A stretch of 64,000 nucleotides of DNA from an uncultured Thermoplasmata archaeon (GTDB taxonomy: Archaea > Thermoplasmatota > Thermoplasmata > UBA10834): assembly GCA_963719945.1 (NCBI GenBank), contig CAVRDX010000004.1, positions 181,959 through 245,958 of the forward strand, in the 5' to 3' direction. Shown here one piece after another: positions 25,065-36,313 of the stretch; the first letter of the stretch is position 1; each line of letters opens with the position of its first letter. The notes beneath the pieces were generated by a model that saw nothing but the letters and a program-made list of their open reading frames with translations, searched no databases and had not been told where the DNA came from. The position numbers were made by a program, and so were the translations under genes.

Positions 25065-25358
25065 GGTAACTCCTCTAGAAATCTGGTCTGTCATTCCCCG
25101 CCCCTTTGACAGAGATATTCTCCTCATTGCTTGACTATTTACTGGATATAATCGCTTTTCGATATGGCCGGCACCAGAAGTCATTCTTCCCGTTCAAGTT
25201 CTTGGCCAAGCCCGCATTGTCTTGTCGTGATGGCATTCAGGAGACGTGCGCGAATGGAATTCGGGCCAGTTCGAGAATCTGAAGGCTATCTGGAATGATA
25301 TATGCAGAAGTCGTCAATAGCCTCGTCCTAGTGCAACTACTCCTCTGATAATTGAGAG

Positions 25359-25430
25359 TGCGGCTGCCGGGATTCGAACCCGGGCTTGAAGCTTGGGAAG
25401 CTTCAGTCCTAACCACTAGACTACAGCCGC
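25359..25430 (-). tRNA. tRNA-Gly(CCC), intronless
   Basis: GCGGCTG/CAGCCGC acceptor stem, GAAGC-TTCCCAA-GCTTC anticodon arm, GGTTCGAATCC T arm; TTTAAA box about 28 nt upstream. Confidence 0.96.
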
Positions 25431-25484: not shown

Positions 25485-26189
25485 CTATGGCGTCTCGATC
25501 ACTGACAGGAAATGGTAACCGTCCCTCGAGACAATCTCCTTCGAATCCAATATTATGGGGTGTGCGAGCATCGGCCCGTCCGTCACCACTGTATGATACT
25601 CTCCGTTCTCTCCTGCCGCATCTATGCCCAAGGTTTCCATCTCTCTGACGATATCAGGTGTCAGAGTCTTCCCGAGATAACTCTTATCCAATACGCCGTC
25701 CTTGACGGATACGATCATGGCCTTGAAACCCCTTTCGAAGAACTCGGCCATCAGCTCTCGTCTTCCCGTCTTCCAGAGTGGAAGAGCCGCCTTCATCCCC
25801 ATCTCCGAACTGACCCTCTCGACCCATTCCCTGTGACCTTCGAGGTCTATGTCACCGAAGACTCCATGGGTTATCCCTTGCTTCTTCAGTTCCTCCAGCG
25901 CATCTTTGAATTGCTCTTCATACCCTTCCCAGGAGGCGTTCCTGGTCATCAGTGGGATCCCCATCGCTCTGGCCTGGCTATCGATCACAGAGACGGGCAA
26001 TCCATGTCCTCGCGATCTATCGCCAGTCTCGATCAACATGGTCAGAAGATTTCTCGGCGATGCTCCAAGCTCGATTGCATGGAACAATGCGAGTGCGGAG
26101 TCCTTACCTCCGCTCCAAGAACAAAAGAATGGTGTTTCGGGAACCAGCGTCTCTACTTCACATTTTCGAGCTGGCTTATGATGTTCCAT
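25485..26189 (-). CDS. Diphthine--ammonia ligase-like ATP pyrophosphatase (DUF71)
   Basis: SWSGGKDS PP-loop, GDIDL..H, GENGEYHT; start uncertain. Confidence 0.88.
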   Translation of the reverse strand: MEHHKPARKCEVETLVPETPFFCSWSGGKDSALALFHAIELGASPRNLLTMLIETGDRSRGHGLPVSVIDSQARAMGIPLMTRNASWEGYEEQFKDALEELKKQGITHGVFGDIDLEGHREWVERVSSEMGMKAALPLWKTGRRELMAEFFERGFKAMIVSVKDGVLDKSYLGKTLTPDIVREMETLGIDAAGENGEYHTVVTDGPMLAHPIILDSKEIVSRDGYHFLSVIETP

Positions 26190-26407
26190 ATGAGCGTCCG
26201 CCCGTGGAGTGGTATGTTCGGATCATTGGCTAGTTCGTCGAGGATCATGATAGCGCTCGCGCTCCTGATGTCCAAAGCCTCCTCTTTGTGCGACAGTCTC
26301 TCCTTTGCTTGTGTCGCACCGCGCCGGATGTTCCTAGGGACCGAGTTGTCCTCGGCCAGCTGGTCCAACACCTCCATGATCTGTCTAAGCTTTGTTTCCA
26401 TATCCAT
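26153..26407 (-). CDS. UPF0147-family protein
   Basis: DNSVPRNIRR, DPNIPLHGRTLIW. Confidence 0.92.
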   Translation of the reverse strand: MDMETKLRQIMEVLDQLAEDNSVPRNIRRGATQAKERLSHKEEALDIRSASAIMILDELANDPNIPLHGRTLIWNIISQLENVK

Positions 26408-26453
26408 AACGCTCACCTTCGAAAGTGATTTTTAATGAGGAAAGCGGAGAAAA

Positions 26454-26798
26454 CTATTCCTTCGGCTCTTCCTCAACTTCGACCTTGATCTTGCCTCTTT
26501 CCTTGAACGTCGTGACGACCATGAAAGTCTTGGTCTCCTTCACGCCGTTTATGTCTGCGACATTGTCGACTATGAACCTCTTGAGGGCTCCATAATTAGG
26601 GAACCTTGCTTTTGCGAAGATATCCGTGTCCCCGGTGACCAGGAACACATCCTCGATATGGTCGTAGGATGCGATCTTCTCCGCGACCTCGTCGGACCCC
26701 TTCGTATCAATCTTGAAGCTGATTAGGGCCGTGACTTGTTCCTCACCATAGTACGTCGAGATGATCTCCTCGTACTCCTTCTTGTCCTTATCTTCCAT
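26454..26798 (-). CDS. Lrp/AsnC ligand-binding domain protein
   Basis: VFLVTGDTDIFAK, GVKETKTFMV. Confidence 0.85.
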   Translation of the reverse strand: MEDKDKKEYEEIISTYYGEEQVTALISFKIDTKGSDEVAEKIASYDHIEDVFLVTGDTDIFAKARFPNYGALKRFIVDNVADINGVKETKTFMVVTTFKERGKIKVEVEEEPKE

Positions 26799-26936: not shown

Positions 26937-27107
26937 TTACAGGCGTGCGCCTTCGAATTCTTCTTGGAGGTCTATGATCACTTGTTCAAGGATCTCCTCC
27001 AAGCTGGCGCTCCTGTACTCTCGCATTCCACCAAGGTCACTCTGAACTCTTGCAACATACGATGCGTTGCTCTTCAGAAACTCAACGTTGCACAAGGGCT
27101 CTTCCAT
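26937..27107 (-). CDS. Small 56-aa acidic hypothetical protein
   Basis: Manual translation MEEPLCNVEFLKSNASYVARVQSDLGGMREYRSASLEEILEQVIIDLQEEFEGARL*; GGGGTGA RBS; BRE/TATA-like GAAAGGTCTAAATA upstream. Confidence 0.75.
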   Translation of the reverse strand: MEEPLCNVEFLKSNASYVARVQSDLGGMREYRSASLEEILEQVIIDLQEEFEGARL

Positions 27108-27478
27108 CCGTGTTCACCCCATCTGGCCCAGGCACCACCCGAGGCCATGGTTAGCGCGCTGGTGCGCCATATATCCTCTATTATTTAGACCTTTCTTAAA
27201 TTCCTTCCGGTGACCGGACGGGCCAGAATGCCGTCTGGCACGGGTCTGGGTCTGATGATGGGTGCCTTCAGGTCTGATCCATGCCCTCTAGCATACTCTA
27301 CCTGACGGGTTTACAATGTTCAAGTTCGGCCAATGCCAGCGACCAAGTATTATATATCGCAGCAACAGTAATCCCAGATCGATGAACTCGGCAGCCAATA
27401 GCCTTATCATAATTATAGGCTGATTCTTGCCCCCATTGCCGAGTTTGTATTAGAGGCCTTTTGGAGGGATTTGTTGTT

Positions 27479-30400
27479 ATGAAGAAGTACTACCGAGAAC
27501 CTGCCGGCGAGACCTTCTCCGGCATAGAAGAGGAGGTTCTCTCTCTCTGGGGACAGGAGAGCATGCTGCTCAAGGTCAAGGAGCGGATGCGCGACGGTGC
27601 CCCTCTGTACTTCTGCGAAGGTCCCCCGACCGCTAAGAGCCCGCCCCATTTCGGTGACGCCCTCACGCGCGCGGTCAAGGATGCGTTCCTCAGGTTCCAC
27701 ATAATGAACGGTAGGCAGGTCCTGCCCTACATAGGCGGCTGGGACTGTCATGGGCTCCCAGTCGAGCTGGAGGTCGAGCGGTCTCTGGGACTGGGGAGCA
27801 AGGCCGATATCGAGCGATACGGGATCGAACCCTTCAATTCTCGATGCCGCGAGAGCGTCCTCCGCTACAAGGGAGATTGGGAGGAGATGAGCCGGAGGGT
27901 CGGCTACTGGATCGATTTCGAGAATGCCTACATGACCATGTCCAACGAGTACATCGAGAGCGTATGGTGGTCAGTCAAGCAATTGCATTCGAAGGGCTTG
28001 CTGGTAAAGGACAAGCAGGTCGTCCCTTACTGCCCAAGGTGTGGAACCACCCTGAGCACTCACGAAGTGGCATTAGGTTTCGGCGAGGTCGAGACCAGAT
28101 ACGTCGTCGCCCGTTTCCGGATCGACGAGCTGGATGCCAGCGCCCTGGTCTACACCGAGACGCCATGGACCCTGGTGGCGAACGCCCTGCTCGCGGTCGA
28201 CGGAAACCAACGCTATGTGCTCATGGAATCATCCGGTGAGAGGTTGCTTCTCAGCGAACCTAGCTCGAAGGTATGGTTGCCTTCGTGCAAGGTGCTTCGC
28301 ACCTTCTCCGGAACAGAGCTGGTCGGTCTATCTTATGTTCCACCGTTCAATTACTCGGGACGGCCAGGCGATTCGTTCAAGATTGTTCATTCTGACGAGG
28401 TAACCAAGGAGGAAGGCACCGGGATAATGCACGTGTGCCCCGCATGCAGCTCGATAGATTTCGAGATAGCAGCGGCCGAGGGTCTCGAATTGTTCGATCC
28501 GATCGACGAGACCGCGAGTTTCACGCAGGAAATCCCCGAACTCGCCGGCAAGCTGGTCACAGACTCAAGCACTGATGTTATACGGATGCTAGAGGGCTCA
28601 GGGTCTTTGTTCAAATGGGGTCTGATGAAACGGTCATCACCATTTTGCTGGAGGTGTCAAACCCCGCTCATCTACAAGCTAAGAGACGCCTGGCTCATAA
28701 AGGCTTCAGATGTGAAGGACGAGATGTCCAGATTGAACCAGAAGATCCGATGGGTGCCTGAGACCTTCCGGGACCTGAGGTTCGGAAACTTCATCGCGGA
28801 CGCTAAGGATTGGGCAGTCAGCCGGAGTCGATACTGGGGGACGCCGCTACCTATCTGGAGATGCACGGAGGGCCACGAATACTGTGTGGGTTCGGTCCAG
28901 GAGCTAAGGGATTCGTCCGAGTCCCCGGTTCCAGATGGATCGGACCTGCACCGTCCTTTCGTGGATGCCGTCACCCTCAGATGCCCACAATGTGGTAGGA
29001 GCATGAAGCGTGAGGAATTCGTCCTCGACTGCTGGTACGATTCCGGGTGCGCGCCATTCGCCCAATACCACTACCCGTTCGAGAACAAGGATGTGTTCGA
29101 TTCACACAGGTCATTGGATTTCATATCGGAATCAGTGGAGCAGACTCGCGGATGGTTCTACACACAGCATGTGTTGAGCACCCTGCTATTCGATGCTCCA
29201 GCGTTCACTTCCGTCCTTGTGATGGGTAACGTGCTCGGTGCCGATGGGAAGAAGATGAGGAACGTGCACAAGAACACGGTTTCACCGTCCGAGGTGTTCT
29301 CGTCCGTCGGTGCGGATGCATCAAGACTCTATCTCCTTGGAAGCCCGACGTGGGAGTCTGTTCAATTCTCGGAGGAGGATGTGAGGAAGACGATGGTCGG
29401 CACGCTCAAGACGCTCCTCAATGTCTACGCATTCTACGCATCCAATGCCAACGCTTACGGTTATACTGGCCAGGAGGCTGGAACCAAGACTCACGACCTG
29501 GACACCTGGATCCTATCCCGATTGAACACGACCATCGTTGAGGCCAGGAACGGATTCGACGACCTCGAGGTCCACCGGGCAGTGAACTCGGTAAGGGAGT
29601 TCGTGGAGGATTTGAGCAACTGGTATGTTCGCAGGTCCAGGCGCAGGTTCTGGGTCGAGAGCGATCCACTCGACCGCTTCTCCGCACATTCCACGCTCCA
29701 TGAATGCCTCACGATATTGTCCAGAATAATGGCTCCGATCACACCTTTCTTCGCGGACTGGCTCTATAGAAACCTGAAAGGGGCCAAGGGAAGCGTGCAT
29801 CTCGAGGACTATCCAATCGCTAACGAGGAACATTCCAACAAACCGCTTGAGCTGCAGATGGCCATTGTTCGGAGGGCAGTCGAAGCCGGCCGTCTGGCCC
29901 GTCAGAACGCAAACATAAAGTTGAGACAGCCGCTCGAAGAGGTAGTGATAGCCGCCAGCAATGACGATGTATGGACGCTTCGCAGATATGAGAAGATGAT
30001 CTCCGAGGAGCTGAATGTCCGATCAGTGAAGTGCATCGAATCCAGGGAGAGCATGGTGGAGTATACCATATCGGCGAACCTCAGGACCCTCGGTCCGAGG
30101 TTCAAGGAAGGGGCCGAGGAGGTCTCGAAACTGCTCGAGATGGTCGATGGTAGCGAACTGGTTAGACACCTGAAGACGAAGGGAAGGCTGCGTCTGGGAG
30201 GCTACGACCTCTACGAGGAGGATGTCATCATCAGCGAGACGCAGAAATCAGGATACACCCACGCATCGATGGATGACATGCATGTCTACTTCTCGACCAA
30301 GATGAATGCGAAGCTCAAGATGGATGGCCTCGCTAGAGAAGTCATCAGACGAGTACAGCACATGCGAAAGGAGCAGGGTCTGGCTTTCGATGACCTCGTC

Positions 30401-30571
30401 GTCGTGGAGTATTCGGCCCATCCGGACATCGAGGCGGCCATCGTCGCCCATAAGTCCCGTCTGGAGACGGAAACGCATGCGAAAACCTACTCGAAGTCCA
30501 CCTCGCTCCAAGATGCCAAGAAGTGGACGGTCAACAAGATGCCGCTCGAGCTTGTGGTCAGGAGACTCTGA
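27479..30571 (+). CDS. ileS: Isoleucyl-tRNA synthetase-family protein with degenerate HIGH/KMSKS motifs
   Basis: GWDCHGLPVE, SRSRYWGTPLP, DCWYDSG, QTRGWFY, SNWYVRRSRRRFW and an IleRS2-type C-terminus; HIGH reads HFGD and KMSKS reads KMRNV. Confidence 0.9.
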   Translation: MKKYYREPAGETFSGIEEEVLSLWGQESMLLKVKERMRDGAPLYFCEGPPTAKSPPHFGDALTRAVKDAFLRFHIMNGRQVLPYIGGWDCHGLPVELEVERSLGLGSKADIERYGIEPFNSRCRESVLRYKGDWEEMSRRVGYWIDFENAYMTMSNEYIESVWWSVKQLHSKGLLVKDKQVVPYCPRCGTTLSTHEVALGFGEVETRYVVARFRIDELDASALVYTETPWTLVANALLAVDGNQRYVLMESSGERLLLSEPSSKVWLPSCKVLRTFSGTELVGLSYVPPFNYSGRPGDSFKIVHSDEVTKEEGTGIMHVCPACSSIDFEIAAAEGLELFDPIDETASFTQEIPELAGKLVTDSSTDVIRMLEGSGSLFKWGLMKRSSPFCWRCQTPLIYKLRDAWLIKASDVKDEMSRLNQKIRWVPETFRDLRFGNFIADAKDWAVSRSRYWGTPLPIWRCTEGHEYCVGSVQELRDSSESPVPDGSDLHRPFVDAVTLRCPQCGRSMKREEFVLDCWYDSGCAPFAQYHYPFENKDVFDSHRSLDFISESVEQTRGWFYTQHVLSTLLFDAPAFTSVLVMGNVLGADGKKMRNVHKNTVSPSEVFSSVGADASRLYLLGSPTWESVQFSEEDVRKTMVGTLKTLLNVYAFYASNANAYGYTGQEAGTKTHDLDTWILSRLNTTIVEARNGFDDLEVHRAVNSVREFVEDLSNWYVRRSRRRFWVESDPLDRFSAHSTLHECLTILSRIMAPITPFFADWLYRNLKGAKGSVHLEDYPIANEEHSNKPLELQMAIVRRAVEAGRLARQNANIKLRQPLEEVVIAASNDDVWTLRRYEKMISEELNVRSVKCIESRESMVEYTISANLRTLGPRFKEGAEEVSKLLEMVDGSELVRHLKTKGRLRLGGYDLYEEDVIISETQKSGYTHASMDDMHVYFSTKMNAKLKMDGLAREVIRRVQHMRKEQGLAFDDLVVVEYSAHPDIEAAIVAHKSRLETETHAKTYSKSTSLQDAKKWTVNKMPLELVVRRL

Positions 30572-31040
30572 CCTTCTTCTTCGGTCCCTTGGATATCGAT
30601 TTCTCCATCAGGTATGCGTGCTTCTTGGCGCCGTAATAATCCTTCACCATGGTCTTCAGGACATACCCGTGTTTGAGGTATAGGTTGATGGCTGCGGTAT
30701 TCTCTATGCCGACCTCGAGGCCACTCTTCCGAACCCCTAGGATCGCCATCCTCTTCTCGCATTCAATCAAGAGGCGCGAACCAAGCCCCTTCTCGCGTCT
30801 GCCATCCATGACTGCTACGGAAGCTATGCGTCCTTCCCCGCACCTCTTCGAGAACATGCACATGGCCGCCCCTATGATCGCCCGTTCGTCGACAGCGACC
30901 AACGCTATGGTATCGTTCCTGACGACGAATGCGGTGACGGTCTCCTGCTCGAACCGTCTCTCATCGAAACATTCCGCCTCCAAGCGCATGATGCCTGGCA
31001 GGTCCTTCATGGTGGCGACCCTAACCTTCACAGACGGCAT
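30558..31040 (-). CDS. RimI-like GNAT N-acetyltransferase
   Basis: SVAV...RREKGLGSRLL, LEV..ENTAAINLY.KHGY, KDYY. Confidence 0.88.
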   Translation of the reverse strand: MPSVKVRVATMKDLPGIMRLEAECFDERRFEQETVTAFVVRNDTIALVAVDERAIIGAAMCMFSKRCGEGRIASVAVMDGRREKGLGSRLLIECEKRMAILGVRKSGLEVGIENTAAINLYLKHGYVLKTMVKDYYGAKKHAYLMEKSISKGPKKKVRVS

Positions 31041-31113: not shown

Positions 31114-32403
31114 ATGGTCCCGATAAAGAACGCCGTCTCAAAAGAAATGGTGGGCAAGAACGTCCAGGTACGTGGATGGATCTACCGCACCAGGAGCAGC
31201 GGCGGAATAGCGTTCATAGTCATGCGCGATTCGACAGGCATAGTCCAGGTTACCGTCAAGAAGGGTTCTGTCCCGGACGAGGACTTCGTCTCAGCCACCG
31301 ATAGCGGTATCGAATCCTCGGCAGTAGTCGAGGGCACAGTCGCGGAGGACAAGCGCGCACCAGGTGGTTACGAGATACGCGCGAGCCGATTCATTCTAGT
31401 GGGCAAGGCTGAACCATTCCCGATCACGGAATATCAAAGCACCGAGCTTCTTCTGGATCTGAGACACCTATGGATAAGATCCAGGGAACAGACCGCGATC
31501 ATGAGGATCAAGGATTCACTTCTAAGAGGGGCACGCAACTGGTTCCATGAGAACGATTACACTGAAGTAACGCCCCCTATCATCACAGGGGTCGCTCCGG
31601 AAGATAGTACCACCCTGTTCCAGATGAAATACTTCGACAGGATAGCATATCTATCACAGAGTGCACAGTTCTACCTGGAATCGCTCATATTCTCGTGCGA
31701 CAAGGTCTGGGCTCTCACTCCATCTTTCAGGGCGGAGAAGTCGAGGACTCCCAGACATCTGGCGGAATTTTGGCACCTTGAGATGGAAGCGGCCTGGCTT
31801 ACAAACGAAGAGAACATGCAGGTGCAGGAGCAGATGGTGACCGCCATGCTGCACAATGCGGCTGATGAATGTCCCAGCGAGCTCGCGATGTTCAAGCGTG
31901 ACCCCGCAGCCCTGAAGAAGATCGTGCCACCGTTCGAAAGAATGCCCTATGGAGAGGCTATGCAGTACCTGCAGGGCAAAGGGTTCGACATGTCATGGGG
32001 AGACGACCTAGGCGCAGTCGAGGAGCGCGAGCTTACAAAGGACCGCACCATCCCGATGTTCGTGGTGAACTATCCGAAGGAGCTCAAGCCGTTCTACATG
32101 AAGGAGAACCCGGACGACCCGCGCACATACAAGAATAGCGACTTGCTGGCGCCGGAAGGCTTCGGCGAGATAATCGGCGGCAGCGAGAGGGAGACGGACA
32201 ACGCACTCATTCTCGAGAGACTGCGCGAGAAGGGCGAGCCCTTGGAGAACTACAGTTGGTATCTGGATCTCAGAAGGTATGGGTCGGTCCCACACTCTGG
32301 GTTCGGTCTGGGAACGGAGAGGATCGTGACATGGATATGCGGTCTGGACCATATCCGCGACGCGATACCATTCCCGCGCACGGTCTCTAGGGTGTTCCCC
32401 TAG
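31114..32403 (+). CDS. asnS: Asparagine--tRNA ligase
   Basis: N-terminal OB fold, YLSQSAQFY, FRAEKSRTPRHLAEFWHLE, GEIIGGSERE, PHSGFGLG. Confidence 0.93.
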   Translation: MVPIKNAVSKEMVGKNVQVRGWIYRTRSSGGIAFIVMRDSTGIVQVTVKKGSVPDEDFVSATDSGIESSAVVEGTVAEDKRAPGGYEIRASRFILVGKAEPFPITEYQSTELLLDLRHLWIRSREQTAIMRIKDSLLRGARNWFHENDYTEVTPPIITGVAPEDSTTLFQMKYFDRIAYLSQSAQFYLESLIFSCDKVWALTPSFRAEKSRTPRHLAEFWHLEMEAAWLTNEENMQVQEQMVTAMLHNAADECPSELAMFKRDPAALKKIVPPFERMPYGEAMQYLQGKGFDMSWGDDLGAVEERELTKDRTIPMFVVNYPKELKPFYMKENPDDPRTYKNSDLLAPEGFGEIIGGSERETDNALILERLREKGEPLENYSWYLDLRRYGSVPHSGFGLGTERIVTWICGLDHIRDAIPFPRTVSRVFP

Positions 32404-35743: not shown

Positions 35744-36313
35744 TCAACGATACTGGTCGATCAGCTTCATCATATCCTTCTCGAGGCCGACGCTCATGGC
35801 TGGAGCCTCGATCACTTCCACGTTCCTCTCAAGAAGTGCCAGCTCCTTCTCGCTGAAGGCGTCTGGGCTTATCGGTATCAGGACCACTGACTTGCTCTGC
35901 ATGACCTGCTCGTTTATGTGCTCGGCGAACCTGAGCACCTGCTGGAATCCGTTGTTGATCACCAGGTACTCGAGCCCGTCGATGATGACGACGCACTTCT
36001 CGTACCTCTCGATGAACGAGGAGATCATGGTCGCGAGCGTGCCTATGCTGGTCGGGTTGTGATGGTCCTTTCCCGGGGTGTGGCTCAACCACAGGATGCG
36101 CGTATCGCCCAGATCGAAAGCCTCTTTGACCTTCTCAGGGTACTGACGGGTGACGCATAATCCCGGAATGCTGTCAGAAATCGCGTTCTCAAACAGTTTG
36201 TAGGATAGGAAAGGCTTCCGCTCCCTGACTACGTAACACATTCCCGCTTCGGGACGGATCAGCTCCATCTGGTTCGAGATCTTCTCTTCCGAACCGATGT
36301 CCTTATCCTCCAC
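35744..36313 (-). CDS. DUF835-domain (inactive KaiC/RecA-like) protein
   Basis: GLCVTR, ILWLS, VIIDGLEYLVINNGF, EKELALLER. Confidence 0.85.
   Translation of the reverse strand: MEDKDIGSEEKISNQMELIRPEAGMCYVVRERKPFLSYKLFENAISDSIPGLCVTRQYPEKVKEAFDLGDTRILWLSHTPGKDHHNPTSIGTLATMISSFIERYEKCVVIIDGLEYLVINNGFQQVLRFAEHINEQVMQSKSVVLIPISPDAFSEKELALLERNVEVIEAPAMSVGLEKDMMKLIDQYR

Follow-up and report, generated by a model that had tools for sequence, protein, structure and literature searches.

Proteins derived from aminoacyl-tRNA synthetases that keep the binding of a ligand or a tRNA, perform no aminoacylation and act as regulators or sensors include HisZ and the HisRS-like domain of GCN2. HisZ is listed in Table 1 of a review (PMC9437257), which also describes LeuRS-I of the Sulfolobaceae (Weitzel et al. 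2020, as reviewed there), an additional class Ia synthetase whose CP1 domain is disrupted and which binds tRNA and forms the adenylate without carrying out aminoacylation. In Streptomyces, SbzA, a protein resembling the type-2 isoleucyl-tRNA synthetase (IleRS2), transfers the isoleucine of Ile-tRNA(Ile) to altemicidin; according to PMC6331615 and PMC12945691, it retains the motifs HYGH and AMSKA, charges tRNA weakly and is encoded in a biosynthetic cluster. Here, an archaeal IleRS-like paralog is described that is of the same general kind as LeuRS-I and SbzA but departs from both in their defining features, and that probably has a role other than charging tRNA. Its gene occupies positions 27479-30571 of a 64,000-nucleotide stretch of DNA (the window) from an uncultured Thermoplasmata archaeon (GenBank assembly GCA_963719945.1, contig CAVRDX010000004.1, positions 181,959 to 245,958 of the forward strand).

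Like LeuRS-I as the review presents it, the paralog is archaeal, accompanies a canonical enzyme as an extra full-length class Ia synthetase, and has a disrupted CP1 domain. The two differ in amino acid and lineage, and LeuRS-I reportedly still forms the adenylate, whereas the paralog has lost the adenylate-forming loop; the absence of the KMSKS motif suggests that it forms no aminoacyl-adenylate. With SbzA, it shares an origin from IleRS2, its status as an extra copy beside a housekeeping IleRS and an apparently non-canonical use of the synthetic site. In contrast to SbzA, it has lost KMSKS, sits among housekeeping genes rather than in a biosynthetic gene cluster, and carries no motifs of the HYGH or AMSKA type. 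HisZ and the GCN2 domain are more distant parallels, being class II proteins with known partners that are either truncated or part of larger proteins, whereas the paralog has no known partner. A literature search for IleRS paralogs of this kind in Thermoplasmata and related archaea, which covered material other than supplementary files, found no description, and the available part of PMC5388404 contains nothing on the paralog.

The gene is an intact open reading frame (ORF) preceded by a Shine-Dalgarno-like element, as the initial annotation had it; an in-frame TTG lies upstream of the ATG, at 27461. The elements that define the gene are as follows.

27463-27467, + strand: Shine-Dalgarno-like GGAGG, 11 nt 5' of the ATG, a predicted ribosome-binding site.
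27479-30571, + strand: ORF of the IleRS-like paralog, ATG at 27479, stop codon ending at 30571, 1030 amino acids (aa).
29993-30565, + strand: C-terminal DUF5915 domain of type-2 IleRS (PF19302, aa 839-1029, E 2.3e-32).

The protein has the Rossmann fold, CP1, anticodon-binding and C-terminal domain architecture of IleRS, the Pfam families tRNA-synt_1, Anticodon_1 and DUF5915 (PF00133, PF08264, PF19302) together spanning aa 20-1029. It scores 746.9-747.6 bits against TIGR00392, the NCBIfam ileS equivalog model, and thus passes the curated cut-off of 621.4. The solved structures closest to it are 8c8v/8c8u (784 bits, aa 17-999 aligned), followed by 1ile (702 bits). The former are identified as Priestia megaterium IleRS2 in PMC12945691, and 1ILE/1JZQ as the type-2 IleRS of Thermus thermophilus in PMC6331615. 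Hereafter, type B denotes the lineage of the window gene, that is, type-2 IleRS, and type A the archaeal-type IleRS.

The archaeal form of the HIGH motif is usually HxGT. Exactly such an enzyme exists beside the paralog: in the same assembly (1.78 Mb, 4 contigs, 87% complete), two genes score above the ileS cut-off, and the second, predicted by the initial annotation, is a canonical type-A ileS at G000:C1:499197-501722, on another contig than the paralog, with 957.9 bits and the working-type motifs SIHIGT, AMSKS, EAHDQTRG, WTTTPWT and HIAPGHGPDD. This type-A IleRS (L001, G000:C1:497697-503222, minus strand) is a fusion with an ORF of at least 1346 aa, in which the IleRS core is followed by DUF5915, two helix-hairpin-helix repeats and DUF835; most type-A copies of the class are ORFs of similar length, about 1330-1500 aa. 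The candidate tRNA partners in the genome are unremarkable: there is a single tRNA-Ile(GAT), and two CAT tRNAs carry introns.

The co-occurrence of the two genes is a property of the family. Two ileS-family matches were found in 23 of 24 same-family relatives in a first sample, some second matches being cut at contig ends; genomes with the paralog only, apart from type-A fragments at contig ends, are G004 in that sample and G138 in a later one. When 251 genomes of the class were searched with the query P0001, 245 had a match and the other 6 had none, and matches of at least 57% identity came from the genome itself and all 30 of its family relatives and from no other family in the search. Best matches in other families reached 37-49% (type B, canonical) or about 33% where only type A occurs, and the sister family within the same order, represented by three genomes, has type A alone. 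Since G039, a genome in one contig and 99% complete, has type B as its only ileS match, with HIGH, KMSKS and WTTTPWT in place, type B works as an IleRS in this class. Among the matches listed from a word-index search, the best 120 of 8000 scored candidates, P0002-P0115 are 57-93% identical to the paralog; the sources that give them a name call them isoleucine--tRNA ligase, from Thermoplasmata or Methanomassiliicoccus-type assemblies. Identity then drops to 45-46% at P0116-P0121. KMSKS occurs in none of the 114 closer proteins, and HIGH, KMSKS and WTTTPWT in all six of the more distant ones. After clustering at 50% identity, a single library representative (P0094) stands for the entire clade, and the next match is 41% identical.

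The state of the motifs across the clade was followed in an alignment with 114 canonical type-B enzymes of 950-1130 aa. It includes the 111 clade members that reach 1000 aa and leaves out four shorter ones. The motifs quoted for the window copy in the initial annotation all lie exactly at the coordinates given there. Those of the synthetic site and the tRNA-binding region are listed here.

27647-27658, + strand: HFGD in place of HIGH (aa 57-60).
27737-27760, + strand: GWDCHGLP, a retained synthetic-site motif; G87, W88, D89, H91, G92, L93 and P94 each in 111/111.
29033-29053, + strand: WYDSGCA, the retained WxDSG plus the clade-specific Cys524; W519 and S522 in 111/111.
29129-29143, + strand: ESVEQ.
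29129-29161, + strand: ESVEQTRGWFY, the retained ExxDQTRGWFY active-site helix; E551, Q555, T556, R557, G558, W559, F560 and Y561 each in 111/111.
29222-29236, + strand: MGNVL.
29252-29266, + strand: KMRNV in place of KMSKS (aa 592-596).
29615-29647, + strand: SNWYVRRSRRR, the retained anticodon-binding helix; W715, R718, R721 and R723 each in 111/111.

The window copy thus carries neither the HIGH nor the KMSKS (second Lys) signature of class I synthetases, and the two losses differ in extent across the clade. KMSK is found in 0 of 111 clade members against 96 of 114 canonical enzymes, and the second Lys of KMSKS in 14/111 against 112/114. The sequences that stand in its place vary between subclades (KITRD, KMTRG, VIRSS, AAGSA and others), which argues for relaxed constraint and not for a new conserved motif. 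The loss at HIGH, reported for the window copy and present there as HFGD, extends to only part of the clade: H57 is kept in 95/111, and position 60 is His in 77 and Asp in 28. HxxH occurs in 67/111 clade members and in 61/114 canonical type-B enzymes, the latter having additional GxHH forms, and some clade members have no His in the motif at all (PDMSD, PSIAD, NVEN). Neither HxxH nor the second Lys is present in 40/111. The genus of the window is the most degenerate part of the clade, with HMGD or HFGD at the first site and VIRSS, AMRPS or KMRNV at the second.

Two further changes read earlier as lost motifs are not of this kind. ESVEQ reflects an Asp-to-Glu substitution private to this genome, the nearest relatives having ESVDQ and D554 being kept in 104/111, and the His supposedly replaced in MGNVL is not conserved among canonical type-B enzymes (L 52, H 28, I 13 of 114). 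The motifs that had been called retained, namely GWDCHGLP, RYWGTP, WYDSG, QTRGWFY and SNWYVRRSRRR, are all present in the paralog.

Against these losses stands the conservation of the rest of the protein. Of 134 columns invariant (at least 90%) in the canonical type-B enzymes, 112 are kept in at least 80% of the clade, most of them at 111/111. Every one of the 111 members keeps the isoleucine pocket and the residues that bind tRNA. The conserved columns include GPP 48-50, P56, K67-D68, GWDxHGLPxE 87-96, R449, R451, W519, S522, E551, QTRGWFY 555-561, W715, R718, R721 and R723. The 22 eroded columns comprise eight in the ATP loops (G54, H60, K592, M593, S594, K595, N599, P603), 12 in CP1 (Y201, W225, T227, T228, T231, V308, V317, H318, A320, G324, H385, Y387) and two elsewhere (V81, P545). 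Thirteen of the 134 are lost in the clade. The HIGH, KMSKS, Thr-rich and GxVHxAP motifs, which account for 28 columns, contain ten of these losses, more than chance would produce (hypergeometric p = 6.7e-6, with motif windows partly picked after seeing the data). Contrary to the first proposal, the loss is not selective for ATP contacts, because the editing site in CP1 is degraded as well.

The clade has also acquired invariants of its own. Cys46 (in FCEGPP, 27614-27616, + strand) is Cys in 111/111 paralogs, the canonical enzymes having Y in 57, L in 24, F in 13 and V in 5 of 114, and Cys524 (29048-29050) is present in 111/111 paralogs against 7/114 canonical enzymes; both adjoin amino-acid-pocket motifs in sequence (FCEGPP and WYDSGCA). 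Further clade-specific invariants are THD at 671-673 and many residues of the C-terminal domain between positions 832 and 935.

The two editing-site elements of the window copy are the following.

28151-28171, + strand: YTETPWT, a degenerate form of the Thr-rich editing motif WTTTPWT.
28415-28459, + strand: GTGIMHVCPACSSID, the second editing-site motif (GxVHxAP region), with the Asp kept and the His/Ala context eroded across the clade.

WTTTPWT is found in 0/111 clade members against 106/114 canonical enzymes, and T227 in 9/111. In the second motif H318 remains in 19/111, the window copy being one that has it, and A320 in 14/111. The initial annotation had counted CP1 as retained; the domain and its Asp are indeed present (D327 in 109/111), but of the site made up of WTTTPWT, GxVHxAP and the Asp, only the last persists across the clade. 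Among the five domains, CP1 also ranks lowest in pairwise identity (0.553) and is the least constrained, with an entropy ratio to canonical type B of 0.73 (0.40-0.61 in the others).

Despite these losses, the paralog is under purifying selection. Nei-Gojobori (NG86) ratios of nonsynonymous to synonymous divergence (dN/dS) were obtained for the paralog and type A in the same genome pairs, drawn from 16 genomes with both genes complete and from G003, where a contig end truncates the type-A copy. Of the pairs with a paralog dS below 2, those with dS below 0.7 are listed, deeper pairs being saturated.

G000-G010: paralog 0.084, type A 0.056.
G000-G006: paralog 0.087, type A 0.058.
G000-G005: paralog 0.078, type A 0.059.
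G010-G006: paralog 0.100, type A 0.081.
G010-G005: paralog 0.101, type A 0.073.
G006-G005: paralog 0.097, type A 0.067.
G018-G015: paralog 0.132, type A 0.105.
G009-G011: paralog 0.132, type A 0.150.
G009-G003: paralog 0.197, type A 0.171.
G011-G003: paralog 0.206, type A 0.184 (only the type-A dS below 0.7).

At dS below 0.7 and apart from the G003 pairs, which are higher, the values span 0.078-0.132 for the paralog and 0.056-0.150 for type A; the window copy and its three closest relatives give 0.078-0.087. The values rule out random decay, in line with the selection on the clade that had been anticipated, and the reading frames in 24 genomes inspected are intact or end only at contig ends. 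The constraint is unevenly spread over the domains. Relative to type A in the 16 genomes, the paralog diverges faster by a factor of 1.59 in the N-terminal Rossmann half, 1.59 in CP1 and 1.72 in CP2 and the second Rossmann half. The C-terminal region, a stretch of uncertain homology between type A and type B, gives 1.77; the anticodon-binding domain, at 1.09, is as constrained as in the working type A.

As had been expected of motif-less copies, the paralogs form one clade, with a support of 100 (starred) both in a FastTree phylogeny (103 rows, stem 0.5) and in an IQ-TREE phylogeny (46 rows, LG+G4, short search, stem 0.6 changes per site). In the IQ-TREE phylogeny, nine canonical type-B enzymes that belong to other families of this class form its sister group, with an SH-aLRT of 87 (not starred). 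The sister in the FastTree phylogeny, L043 plus P0130 with a support of 99 (starred), is absent from the IQ-TREE phylogeny and is treated as long-branch attraction. Positional orthology is uninformative here, no neighbours being common to the paralog locus and the type-2 loci of other families. By the trees and by its closest structural relatives, the paralog thus belongs to the type-2 IleRS lineage. It shares with type-2 enzymes the full-length architecture, the best sequence match and the 112 conserved columns, and branches beside those of its own class; it differs from them in having no KMSKS, an eroded HIGH and no Thr-rich motif, in not being the sole IleRS of the cell and in its long stem (0.5-0.6).

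Taken together, the motif states, their conservation across the clade and the selection that maintains the gene are best accommodated by a pseudo-synthetase derived from type-2 IleRS that would bind or sense isoleucine and tRNA(Ile) without ATP-driven activation, a reading to which a probability of roughly 55% is assigned. The ancestor would have been the type-2 IleRS on which other families of the class rely as their sole or main enzyme. In the family of the window, type A would carry out the charging and, after a burst of change, the type-2 copy may have become fixed in a new form, with the KMSKS catalytic loop gone, HIGH decaying in several sublineages and the hydrolytic editing site of CP1 eroded. 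Untouched in this form are the isoleucine pocket, the active-site helix on the adenosine side, the arginines at the acceptor end, the helix that binds the anticodon, and the C-terminal domain. Such a protein would be expected to dock tRNA(Ile) as a normal IleRS does, and its preserved pocket could accept isoleucine or the isoleucyl-A76 end, with neither ATP-dependent activation nor proofreading. It would hence be a binder of isoleucine and tRNA(Ile), or of Ile-tRNA(Ile), that reads out or buffers the charging state. The non-aminoacylating role suggested in the initial annotation is supported by the second ileS, the single clade and the purifying selection. The site-specific erosion, the constraint on the anticodon-binding domain and the precedent of LeuRS-I also speak for the binder; the loss of aminoacylation is predicted from the motifs, as are the binding of isoleucine and tRNA(Ile) and the cellular role.

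Several observations weigh against this binder or sensor. The KMSKS loop is still basic, with Lys or Arg at 591 or 592 in 105/111 and at 594-596 in 78/111 clade members and a mean of 2.4 such residues in positions 591-597 (3.1 in canonical enzymes), so that weak activity is possible. Both HxxH and the second Lys are kept in 10/111, and early-branching members may for this reason still activate isoleucine. In the window copy itself, HIGH still has its first His, and the loop opens with two Lys residues. A fully conserved pocket is equally compatible with a binder, a slow enzyme and a new catalyst. Finally, the neighbourhood comparison found no conserved partner gene, operon, or biosynthetic or regulatory partner that would point to a pathway.

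Much of this would suit a divergent but active IleRS, a slow back-up or an inhibitor-insensitive form in which other basic residues of the loop replace the second Lys, an explanation that is conceivable and on the whole unlikely. Its score above the curated ileS cut-off, the intact pocket and tRNA determinants, the basic loop and the ten members with HxxH and the second Lys all accord with it. In addition, the second Lys is missing from 2 of the 114 sequences classed as canonical, and SbzA with its modified motif still charges weakly (PMC6331615). However, no replacement residue is conserved clade-wide and the loop differs in almost every subclade, while 40/111 members have lost both HxxH and the second Lys and some have no HIGH His at all. 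An active enzyme without editing would mischarge valine. The models for the mupirocin-resistant IleRS MupA and MupB, moreover, give the paralog 719.7 and 723.7 bits (720-724 against cut-offs of 1900), which places it outside that group.

Rather doubtful is an aminoacyl transferase dependent on Ile-tRNA(Ile), similar to SbzA or, by analogy, to cyclodipeptide synthases, that would pass isoleucyl from tRNA charged by the type-A enzyme to another acceptor, perhaps via a new invariant cysteine. The parts that such an enzyme needs, the isoleucine pocket and tRNA binding, are kept, and those it could dispense with, the pyrophosphate-handling loop and editing, are lost; the two clade-specific cysteines, each in 111/111, flank pocket motifs; and SbzA is proof that the IleRS2 scaffold can do so. 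Yet SbzA keeps 61-HYGH-64 and 605-AMSKA-609, to which the acceptor is bound in a model made with AlphaFold 3 (PMC12945691), and the equivalent positions vary in the clade, so that no conserved acceptor site is evident. There are also no biosynthetic genes nearby.

A role in sequestering inhibitors that resemble isoleucyl-adenylate, or isoleucyl-AMP itself, as a decoy or sink is improbable. Its appeal lies in an intact adenosine and isoleucine side of the site combined with a lost triphosphate-handling loop, but stoichiometric sequestration by a protein of 1030 aa would be costly, the constraint on the anticodon-binding domain, equal to that of a working enzyme, would be left unexplained, and no inhibitor gene cluster lies nearby. 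Still less probable is a free-standing trans-editing factor for Val-tRNA(Ile), one of the roles first suggested for the protein: the CP1 domain and its Asp would be in keeping with it, but the erosion of WTTTPWT, T227, H318 and A320 argues against editing, CP1 is the domain lowest in identity and highest in relative entropy, and the type-A enzyme retains editing motifs of its own. A decaying pseudogene or annotation artefact, which the lost catalytic motifs alone might have suggested, is refuted by the intact frames, the low dN/dS (0.08-0.13) and the 112 conserved columns.

The surroundings of the gene in the window are as follows.

25358-25430, - strand: tRNA-Gly(CCC); the window has no other tRNA and no other Rfam match.
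26153-26416, - strand: UPF0147 / stationary-phase-response family protein, 76-97% identical across the family.
26454-26798, - strand: stand-alone Lrp/AsnC ligand-binding (RAM) domain protein without a helix-turn-helix, 76-97% identical across the family.
26937-27107, - strand: 56-aa ORF with no NCBIfam match.
30558-31040, - strand: RimI-like GNAT, convergent with the paralog and overlapping its 3' end by 14 nt.
31114-32403, + strand: asnS, divergently paired with the GNAT gene.
35744-36313, - strand: free-standing DUF835 protein.

With divergent genes upstream and the convergent GNAT gene downstream, the paralog appears monocistronic. Beyond asnS lie genes for M20 and M42 peptidases, GcvT and the DUF835 protein. 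The neighbourhood is kept across the family in 19-23 of 23 loci, and the GNAT-asnS pair also occurs in G040, a genome of another family that has no paralog; the conservation looks like plain synteny. The 56-aa ORF is 89-100% identical across the family, far above its neighbours, but 245 of the 251 genomes searched in the class carry it, and it is therefore not paralog-specific; it looks like an unnamed housekeeping small protein. As a separate observation, the DUF835 tail of the type-A IleRS has at least ten separate match sites in G004 and likewise in G138, which indicates a large paralog family there.

Two ileS-family genes also occur in other families of the class, in some cases in a mirror image of the arrangement described here. 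In genomes of five families, a canonical type B is accompanied by a type-A-like ORF, with helix-hairpin-helix repeats and/or a DUF835 tail, that has neither KMSKS nor the Thr-rich motif; HIGH is also lost in most of these copies, which are the following.

G034: degenerate type-A-like copy L050.
G035: degenerate type-A-like copy L063.
G052: degenerate type-A-like copy L079.
G084: degenerate type-A-like copy L077.
G128: degenerate type-A-like copy L078.

In G075, both ileS-family copies are near-canonical, and the degenerate type-A copies form at least two groups, one of them together with the near-canonical G075 copy, in a tree with long branches that deserves low trust. G070 combines type A with a third form, L076 (G070:C27:99323-104779), of 982 aa, with GVHH for HIGH and AMHRS for KMSKS; its GxHH recalls the signature of mupirocin hyper-resistance. 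As one genome per family was inspected at the sequence level, the mirror-image pattern is a lead and not a census. It is proposed, tentatively, that the non-working one of two old IleRS lineages has repeatedly been kept full-length, motif-less and under selection for a function linked to tRNA(Ile) that either scaffold can supply.

There is a credible chance of such a recurrent tRNA(Ile)-linked function, which, if true, could be, for example, the sensing or buffering of Ile-tRNA(Ile), or the transfer of isoleucyl from tRNA to a new acceptor. HisZ, PoxA, SbzA and LeuRS-I are synthetase-derived proteins with new roles, each of which exposed unexpected biology. The paralog has lost the activation loop and the editing site together, has kept the pocket and every tRNA determinant, and is under selection nearly as strong as that on the working enzyme. 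Because the paralogs pass the ileS threshold and are named isoleucine--tRNA ligase, inferences from genomes about IleRS type, copy number or antibiotic sensitivity in these archaea would be wrong. The mirror-image families, in turn, would offer a natural comparative system for class I synthetase scaffolds that appear to have stopped charging tRNA.

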